64,000 nt of DNA from Promethearchaeota archaeon Loki_b32 (GTDB lineage: Archaea > Asgardarchaeota > Lokiarchaeia > Sigyniarchaeales > SOKP01): NCBI GenBank assembly GCA_005223125.1, contig NJBH01000004.1, positions 127,401 through 191,400 on the forward strand. The letters are read 5' to 3'. Below the pieces are notes generated by a model that saw nothing but the letters and a program-made list of their open reading frames with translations, ran no database searches and was not told the DNA's origin. A program made the translations under genes and the position numbers. Shown piece by piece: positions 47,751 through 61,725 of this stretch. Every line of letters starts with the position of its first letter. Position 1 is the first letter of the stretch.

Positions 47751-49084
47751 ATGACAAATAATCTCGCTATTATCGGTCTCTCCTGGGGAGGAAATATTGG
47801 GAATACCCCCACAATACCCTAAACGAAGGGAAAGGTAAATTTGTTGATTATTTTGCTCAAAAAGCGGATATTGTCGTAAGATATAATGGTGGAAATAATG
47901 CAGGGCACACAATTGTTGCGAATGGAATTAAGTATAAATTTAAGTTAATGCCTAGTGGAGCCCCTTTAGAAAAGGAATGTGTAATAGCGAATGGTTGTGT
48001 AATCGATCCAAAAGTTTTGCTTGAAGAAATTGAAAACCTAAAGAATTTAAATAAAAAAATAAATTTAAAGTTAAGTTCTACCGCTCATGTAATTTTTCCT
48101 TTTCATCGTATTTTAGATGGATTAGAGGAAAAAACCAAAGGAGATTATGCTGCTGGTACTACTAAAAGAGGAATCGGTCCTACTTATTCTGATAAAGCCG
48201 CCCGCTGGGGTTTAAGAATCTTTGATTTAATAAATCCTGAGATATTAAGACCAAAATTGGAAAGGCTATATAAAATTAAAAAAGATTTAATAGCAGTTTA
48301 TGATCCAAGTGTAGATATCGATTTAGATGCTATTTATGAAGAATACAAATCCTATGGTGAACAATTAAAACCTTACGTTATTGATACAGCTTATTATTTG
48401 AATAAAGCTGTTGATTCTGGCAAAAATATTCTTTTTGAAGCAGCTCAAGGCAGTTTACTCGGTATAGATCATGGATTTTACCCTTTTGGAACATCTTCTA
48501 ATGCAAACGCGTTAGGTATATCTGCTGGCACTGGAATTCCTCCTAAAAAAATAGATAAAATAATAGGAATAGTAAAGGCATATACATCTCGAGTTGGCGA
48601 GGGTAAATTCCCAACAGAATTATATAATGAAATAGCTGAAAAAATTAGAGAGCAGGGTCATGAGTATGGTACAGTAACCGGAAGACCAAGAAGAGTTGGA
48701 TGGTTAGATCTTTTCAATATTAAATATGGAATAATGATTAATGGTGTTGACAAAGTTATAATCACTCTTTTAGATGCGTTAGAAGGAATTAACCCAATTA
48801 AGATGTGTATTGATTATGAATTAGATGGTAAAAAACTTGAGAGTTGGCCAATCCAATCAGAGATAATTAAAAATTGTAAACCAATTTATAAAAGTTTTGA
48901 AGGTTGGGAAGAAAAGACAAGAGAAGAATGGACTAATATTGCTCTAAAAGGTTATGATGCCCTCCCAGAGACAATGAAAATATACATTCAAGCAATTAGA
49001 GAGGAACTTCAGACCGAAATTGCATTAGTTTCAATTGGTCCTGATAGAAGAGAAACTATTGAATTAGTAGAGTGTAATTTTTAA
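47751..49084 (+). CDS. purA: adenylosuccinate synthetase, join(47751..47790,47823..49084), 433 aa after removing a 32-nt insert
   Basis: Spliced N-terminus MTNNLAIIGLSWGDEGKGKFVD...RYNGGNNAGHT; GTTKRGIGP, KAYTSRVG, TVTGRPRRVGW. Confidence 0.93.
47791..47822 (+). other. putative BHB/BHL-type mRNA intron (32 nt)
   Basis: GGGG(47785-88)/CCCT(47817-20) 4-bp helix with cuts 2 nt downstream on each strand; internal TATTG/CAATA stem; removal restores the WGDEGKGK motif. Confidence 0.78.
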
Positions 49085-60984: not shown

Positions 60985-61725
60985 ATGACGTTTTGCAAAG
61001 AATGTGGAGAAGAGATAAAAGATCTCACCCAAAATTTCTGTGAAAAGTGTGGTTCATCAATACCTGATAGTGTAAAACAGAGTGAAACCGTTTCTAAGAC
61101 AATAACAGCACCAGCAAGACCATCAGGTCAACAATCCTATTATCAACCTGGGAGTTTGTTTGATATTAACCGCAACTACTACATCCTTAAAGAGAAATAC
61201 TGGGATATTTAGAAGGTCCTCCCTTTTAAACTCAAATGGGGTAGTGGGGATATATTGGACGAGAAAAACCAAATTATTGGAAGAATGAAAAGGGTGATCT
61301 TGAGCATTAGACGAAGAGTTGAGTTGCAAGAAGTTGATGGTACTATTGCGGCTACAATCCACGCTAAAATTGTGTCTGCACGTGGAGCGCAAGATTTAAA
61401 AGATCCTCAGGGAAATTTAATTGCTCGAATTAAGAAGAAAATTCTGTCATTTTTCAGACCTGTATTTTACCTTGAAGATCCTGAAGGAAATCAATGGTTC
61501 CGTGCCCAAGGTAAGTTTATGGGGTTTCAATTTAAGGTCTATGACGTTACAACAGGCAATGTCATCGCAGAAATTGAAAAAGCTGATAGATGGAGAGATT
61601 TATTCTTAGGTGGATTGCTTGACTTTAAGGACACTTATGCTTTAAGAATACTTGATAATGAAACCGACAGGAGAATCCTTCTAGGTTTTGTCTTGTCAAT
61701 AGACAATGTCCTTCACGACTACTAA
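60985..61725 (+). CDS. zinc-ribbon + LURP-one/scramblase (Tubby C-like) protein, join(60985..61206,61237..61725), 236 aa
   Basis: ORFs 60985-61212 and 61255-61725 share a frame; splicing gives YILKEKYWDWGSGDILDEKNQIIG; repeats such as ARIKKKILSF and DTYALRI are typical of the family. Confidence 0.85.
61207..61236 (+). other. putative BHB mRNA intron (30 nt)
   Basis: TGGG AT^A TTTAGAAGG tcctc CCTTTTAAA CTCA AA^T: 4-bp helix, two 3-nt bulges, 9-bp intron stem; contains the in-frame TAG. Confidence 0.85.

Follow-up and report, generated by a model that had tools for sequence, protein, structure and literature searches.

A 32-nt insert in the Asp13 codon of purA from an Asgard archaeon is very probably an mRNA intron spliced by EndA and RtcB through a relaxed motif

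The window analyzed here is a stretch of 64,000 nucleotides (contig NJBH01000004.1, positions 127,401 to 191,400) that belongs to contig C36 of G000, a genome of 4.13 Mb and 95.5% completeness. The gene content of G000, with actin-like and small GTPase genes, tRNA-Sec and two EF-2 paralogs, points to an Asgard archaeon of the Lokiarchaeia type. The window contains an interrupted purA gene, encoding adenylosuccinate synthetase (AdSS), whose features are collected in Table 1. The neighbors of purA are an inward-pointing 305-aa gene (minus strand) and a 190-aa gene, and purA apparently stands alone. No tRNA genes were found in the window. Read without splicing, the frame that opens at ATG 47751 encodes 23 amino acids and ends at the TAA at 47820-22, and the ORF caller returned 47948-49084 alone, a 378-aa product in which the P-loop is missing. 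When nucleotides 47791-47822 are deleted, G is joined to AC to give GAC, and a 433-aa protein containing WGDEGKGK is obtained; the start, stop, caller product and reconstruction given in the preliminary description were all reproduced. Exon 2 matched PF00709 (E 6e-155) and the PDB structures of AdSS (E 6e-122), with both matches spanning its whole length. The interrupted codon is that of Asp13, an essential residue that is 99% conserved in adenylosuccinate synthetase (PMC12884076). purA is single-copy in this 95.5% complete genome, where no other intact purA was found, and no second copy of the insert sequence was detected elsewhere in the genome. Because the insert recurs in 29 other genomes, one of them 96% identical, an assembly error is excluded. 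The genome also carries apt (adenine salvage), so that the earlier proposal that AMP synthesis may depend on splicing is narrowed to the de novo route, which would need it, and does not extend to the whole AMP supply.

Table 1. Features of the purA locus and further inserts in protein genes of the same genome. Positions without a contig label refer to the window. The names of the CTP synthase, aldolase, Fe-S oxidoreductase, decarboxylase, metallo-hydrolase and small GTPase genes are presumptive, assigned from sequence motifs.
Feature	Position	Strand	Description
purA exon 1	47751..47790	+	13 codons and G of the Asp13 codon; N-terminus matches insert-free relatives
purA intron (predicted)	47791..47822	+	32 nt; frameshifting, terminal in-frame TAA 47820-22
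purA exon 2	47823..49084	+	AC of Asp13 to stop; intact adenylosuccinate synthetase domain
Central helix, 5′ (exon) strand GGGG	47785..47788	+	predicted cut after AG, 47790/47791
Intron-internal hairpin TATTG/CAATA	47795..47816	+	in most relatives begins at the second intron base, leaving a 3-nt bulge
Central helix, 3′ (intron) strand CCCT, then AA^A	47817..47823	+	second predicted cut 47822/47823
LURP-like gene insert	61207..61236	+	30 nt; helix 4/4, inner stem 6/6
EF-2 paralog insert	C3:75804-75833		30 nt with stops, in G1 motif; PF00009 with one stop inside
CTP synthase insert	C66:7883	+	30-31 nt, same shape; not in G006 ortholog
Aldolase-like (class I) insert	C32:33921	-	30-31 nt, same shape; not in G006 ortholog
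Fe-S oxidoreductase insert	C32:11030	+	30-31 nt, same shape; not in G006 ortholog
UDP-glucuronate decarboxylase-like insert	C4:82105	-	30-31 nt, same shape; not in G006 ortholog
Metallo-hydrolase insert	C64:72137	-	30-31 nt, same shape; not in G006 ortholog
Small GTPase insert	C63:17590	+	30-31 nt, same shape; not in G006 ortholog
88-aa gene insert	C20:13225	-	30-31 nt, same shape; not in G006 ortholog
rpl11 (uL11) insert	C57:12438-12465		28 nt; common to this genome and G006

The 5′ end of purA was read in 132 genomes of the class. An insert at the identical G^AY site is present in 30 of these, spread over four genera: 18/48 genomes of the same genus, and 9/36, 2/4 and 1/7 genomes of three other genera of the family. 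It was found in 0/17 genomes outside the family. The inserts are 30, 31 or 32 nt long and comprise 26 distinct sequences. Unspliced, every one of the 30 genes reads into a stop within 13 codons, the 30-nt in-frame inserts included, and the 32-nt register (47791-47822) alone restores WGDEGK in all 30. The 29-nt register (47794-47822), which would place Asn at this position, had been judged less likely; since the last intron base varies (T in 18, A in 6 and G in 2 of the distinct inserts), AAC is no common alternative, and this register was rejected. Free variation is seen at the first and last intron bases, as bulge bases would be expected to show. At the helix, Gly is encoded by GGA in 30/30 insert-bearing genes vs 37/102 insert-free genes, which indicates that a synonymous position is maintained as the motif requires. 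Genome G004, 96% identical to this one, retains the insert with its inner stem in register, and purA of G086 carries, besides a 31-nt insert in the Asp13 codon, another of 31 nt that follows immediately on the His41 codon and has a 4/4 helix. On a protein tree of exon 2 with 129 rows (three short rows were left out), the distribution of the insert takes at least 8 gains or losses, 6 of them forced by well-supported branches, and reflects either repeated gain or one gain followed by many precise losses.

In single-sequence folding, the base pairs of the central helix (GGGG, 47785-88, with CCCT, 47817-20) each had a probability of 0.66, and those between TATTG (47795-99) and CAATA (47812-16) were weaker (0.18-0.36). 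Taken alone, the 86-nt region folded no better than shuffles (z +0.88), and for this reason the purA copy of this genome alone is weak structural evidence; the case for a putative intron is carried by comparative data. Across relatives, the helix and inner stem of the insert are kept while the interior is variable. The central helix is 4/4 paired in 28/30 genomes, this one included, and the variants CCCC, CTCT and CTTT still pair, via G-U or G-C. In the inner stem, changes are of compensatory type (pair 2: TA 21, AT 5; pair 4: GC 11, AT 7, TA 4, GT 2), although these covariation counts are overstated because related genomes are not independent. When the partner strand was slid by 1-3 nt as a control, 2.0-4.9 motif positions paired vs 7.65 of 8 in register (26 distinct inserts), a comparison that, with related genomes, is no formal test.

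A 4/4 helix, at least 3/4 inner pairs and a 3-nt 5′ bulge occur together in 23/26 distinct inserts; this genome has a 6-nt loop (47789-94) on the 5′ side and the weakest inner stem of the set, with 2 of the first 4 pairs. The first pairs of a strict exon-exon outer helix are missing in the strict register in 30/30 genomes; about a dozen inserts have a 7-bp helix leaving a 2-nt bulge, and others are without an outer helix. Since the strict exon-exon helix is missing throughout, the purA motif belongs to the relaxed HBh′/BHL class, which is likewise seen in cbf5 introns (PMC2738675). The relaxed character noted before is thus borne out by the missing outer helix, but the 6-nt loop cited with it is peculiar to this genome, and relatives mostly have a 3-nt bulge. 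Compared with the strict hBHBh′ motif, the purA insert has no exon-exon outer helix to close off a 3-nt 3′ bulge. It does have a 4-bp central helix, each strand of which is followed, two bases further 3′, by a predicted splice site, and its removal restores a conserved frame that is under selection.

Exon-2 dN/dS was 0.06-0.11 in three insert-bearing clades, vs 0.095 in insert-free genes. For exon 2 of this genome compared with its neighbors, dN was 0.06-0.085, dS was 0.83-0.90 and dN/dS was 0.07-0.09. Exon 2 is intact and selection is not relaxed, in agreement with the earlier argument against decay. These values bear on the idea that most relatives splice the insert but that little or no cleavage takes place at the degenerate copy of this genome with its 6-nt loop, purA being a recent pseudogene in a cell that relies on adenine salvage. 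Such a history would fit the weak inner stem, the presence of apt and the fact that purA was not recovered with this query in a few relatives (G003, G006, G036 and G140, 90-97% complete), where its absence may be due to assembly gaps or loss. It is hard to reconcile with the dN/dS of the intact exon 2, with G004, from which this genome differs at third positions in 9 of 12 exon-2 differences and which keeps the insert with a registered stem, with the perfect central helix and with an EndA predicted to be of the relaxed type; a recent pseudogene is considered very unlikely.

Translation could in principle cross the insert by programmed bypass or frameshifting of the T4 gene 60 type. Known bypass sites contain a hairpin and a stop codon, and both lie inside the purA insert. 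Yet the insert splits a codon, no matched landing codon is present and GGA does not recur ahead of exon 2; the three insert lengths (30, 31 and 32 nt) would require three different frame changes; and the codon preceding Glu would be read as Asn, Tyr or Asp depending on the genome. Skipping by the ribosome also sits poorly with inserts of equal shape and size in tRNAs and with an RNA contig from which the rpl11 insert is absent, and it is regarded as very improbable. A self-splicing group I or II intron was rejected, as a ribozyme core takes some hundred bases and these inserts have 30-32 nt in all.

To place the purA insert among others, this genome was compared with 2.4 of 3.34 Mb (72%) of G006, a member of the same genus, and 1588 genes were tested. 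Besides purA, ten inserts of 28-31 nt and of the same shape were found in protein genes (Table 1), giving at least 11 in the genome, a lower bound because of the part of G006 covered. The other EF-2 paralog (C22) is uninterrupted, as is cbf5. Inserts common to both genomes yielded 73 noisy candidates, from which the two top-scoring ones (rpl11 and LURP-like) were accepted and then checked by pattern searches. Among the frame-breaking hits, several of 47-79 nt were dropped, since they look like local duplications or start-site noise. The LURP-like host gene (zinc-ribbon/LURP-one-related, 60985-61725) encodes 236 aa when joined; of the 15 genomes of the genus that match the pattern, 5 carry its insert and 10 are uninterrupted at precisely that position. 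For rpl11, 14/50 genomes of the genus have the insert and 36/50 are precisely without it, and the exon codons GGC ATA are found in 14/14 insert-bearing vs 6/36 insert-free genomes. G006 has inserts of its own of 30-32 nt, in uppS-like, mevalonate-kinase-like, CinA-like and histone-like genes (C1:1505072, 435337, 1410049 and 1223002, respectively). A blind scan of this genome for 20-44-nt motifs, restricted to candidates whose junction is bridged by an intact homolog, gave six hits, all of 30 or 31 nt.

Introns in tRNA genes of this genome and the relative are of similar size, 25/32 being 28-32 nt (boundaries rough); a relaxed ARAGORN run gave mostly noise. A 30-nt hit at C57:28550 (minus strand) was discarded as an mRNA intron because it is the T-loop intron of tRNA-Sec. 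This tRNA-Sec intron is a strict BHB that is not in G006, and a SelB-like GTPase is encoded ~5 kb away. By eye, the word GCA-N2-4-(T)CGC/TGC was noticed in the loops of the purA, aldolase-like and tRNA-Ala(CGC) introns; it might point to a common origin of tRNA and mRNA introns.

Two EndA paralogs are encoded in the genome. The 201-aa EndA is closest to the catalytic alpha subunits of Aeropyrum and Sulfolobus (3P1Z/3AJV/2CV8), retains the Tyr/His/Lys triad and aligned through the Crenarchaea-specific loop, including its lysine. Loops of the Crenarchaea-specific type confer relaxed substrate recognition (PMC12397907). RtcB is intact. Judged by sequence, the host therefore appears to possess a broad-specificity two-subunit EndA, a type that would accept a relaxed motif, together with an RNA ligase. 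Removal by a nuclease or ligase other than EndA and RtcB, or excision of the insert from the DNA of a subpopulation, would be compatible with the precise absence of the insert from many relatives, which shows that insert-free DNA arises (at least 8 changes on the tree). However, the predicted cut sites lie exactly two bases past each 4-bp helix strand, which is the EndA rule; no insert-free rpl11 contig was present in sequencing run X2 at depth 267; and no reverse transcriptase was found in this 95.5% complete genome. Another removal route is given very little credence, on a par with ribosomal bypass.

The RNA evidence concerns rpl11. RNA run X1 contained a 415-nt contig (depth 28, 3 mismatches, 99% identical to the genome) that lacks exactly the predicted 28 nt; it is a lone contig whose 5′ arm measures 25 nt, short of the 31-nt bridging rule. 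In run X2, from a different sample of the same study and of unrecorded kind, the rpl11 insert was retained at depth 257-267 and no insert-free contig was seen. RNA runs X6 and X7 contained no rpl11 locus sequence. One RNA run of the study that includes this species shared 6% of purA-region words; small word shares are no evidence. A template switch during reverse transcription at the rpl11 GCATA repeat was rejected, since it would delete 30 nt, not the observed 28. The X1 contig could possibly derive from an insert-free strain of this species: 36/50 genomes of the genus are without the rpl11 insert, and insert-free alleles occur in other species of the genus, one of which differs by a single base around the junction. 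The contig supports splicing of this intron class in this species, for rpl11 only.

Taken together, the purA insert is interpreted, with a probability of about nine in ten, as an mRNA intron with a relaxed motif that is spliced by EndA and RtcB, splicing of the purA RNA itself being inferred. In the proposed mechanism, exon GGGG of the purA transcript would pair with intron CCCU while the intron folds into a hairpin; two-subunit EndA would cut two nt 3′ of each helix strand, after 47790 and after 47822; and RtcB would join the exons, by which the Asp13 codon is rebuilt. Unspliced purA mRNA would yield the 23-aa peptide. The purA intron would be one member of a population of 28-32-nt elements, found within tRNAs and at conserved motifs of protein-coding genes, that are precisely gained and lost. 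That such introns remain at catalytic motifs is probably due to intolerance of any inexact removal there and to the constancy of the exon strand of the helix. Retention as tolerated elements that are removed precisely would account for the data as well as a hypothetical regulatory role would.

The nearest known system is the cbf5 pre-mRNA intron of Desulfurococcales and Sulfolobales, as described in PMC2738675 (with Watanabe 2002 and Yoshinari 2006 cited there). The cbf5 introns have in common with the purA insert that they are short (16-44 nt), often have an unconventional BHB and occur with a hetero-oligomeric EndA, by which the cbf5 introns are cut. Like the purA insert, the cbf5 intron interrupts a catalytic Asp codon after its first base and has been lost in some lineages. 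By sequence-level tests, the purA insert qualifies as an mRNA intron of the cbf5 kind, its 6-nt loop being a relaxed form of the 5′ bulge. Unlike cbf5, it concerns another gene and another phylum, with at least 11 mRNA introns in this genome that are 28-32 nt long and patchy even within a genus, and cbf5 splicing has been experimentally shown whereas purA splicing is predicted. Unconfirmed predictions for other genes are mentioned in PMC2738675. Non-canonical tRNA introns of Asgard archaea (PMC11291895; 10.64898/2026.10.13.758758) resemble the present inserts in their BHB or relaxed motifs, many positions, repeated gains and two-subunit EndA, but those papers are restricted to tRNA genes, and in the present case the insert interrupts a coding sequence, codons of which form the exon strand of the helix. 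The terms mRNA and cbf5 do not occur in 10.64898/2026.10.13.758758. The BHB intron of Haloferax HVO_1309 (PMC7714728) is also processed from an mRNA by the splicing endonuclease, but lies in the 5′ UTR, and that paper (2020) names cbf5 as the only other example. In the searchable literature, from which subscription journals are mostly absent, no purA or Asgard mRNA intron is reported, and splicing within an archaeal coding sequence is documented for cbf5 only.

Gene callers truncate the genes concerned, so that P-loops or catalytic residues seem to be missing and metabolic or phylogenetic inference for these genomes can be wrong. Close relatives that differ in whether a given site carries an intron provide a natural system in which to study intron gain and loss. 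This lineage very probably splices many mRNAs. It is likely that a mobile population of ~30-nt introns continues to be gained and lost in tRNAs as well as at active-site codons of core genes (purA, CTP synthase, EF-2, uL11 and histone), and that EndA and RtcB gate the production of a dozen or more proteins per genome, with mRNA splicing as a routine. With at least 11 such introns in a single Asgard-type genome, one of them supported by RNA, splicing of mRNA would be a normal part of gene expression in the closest prokaryotic relatives of eukaryotes, by a route that would be protein-only and unrelated to the spliceosome.
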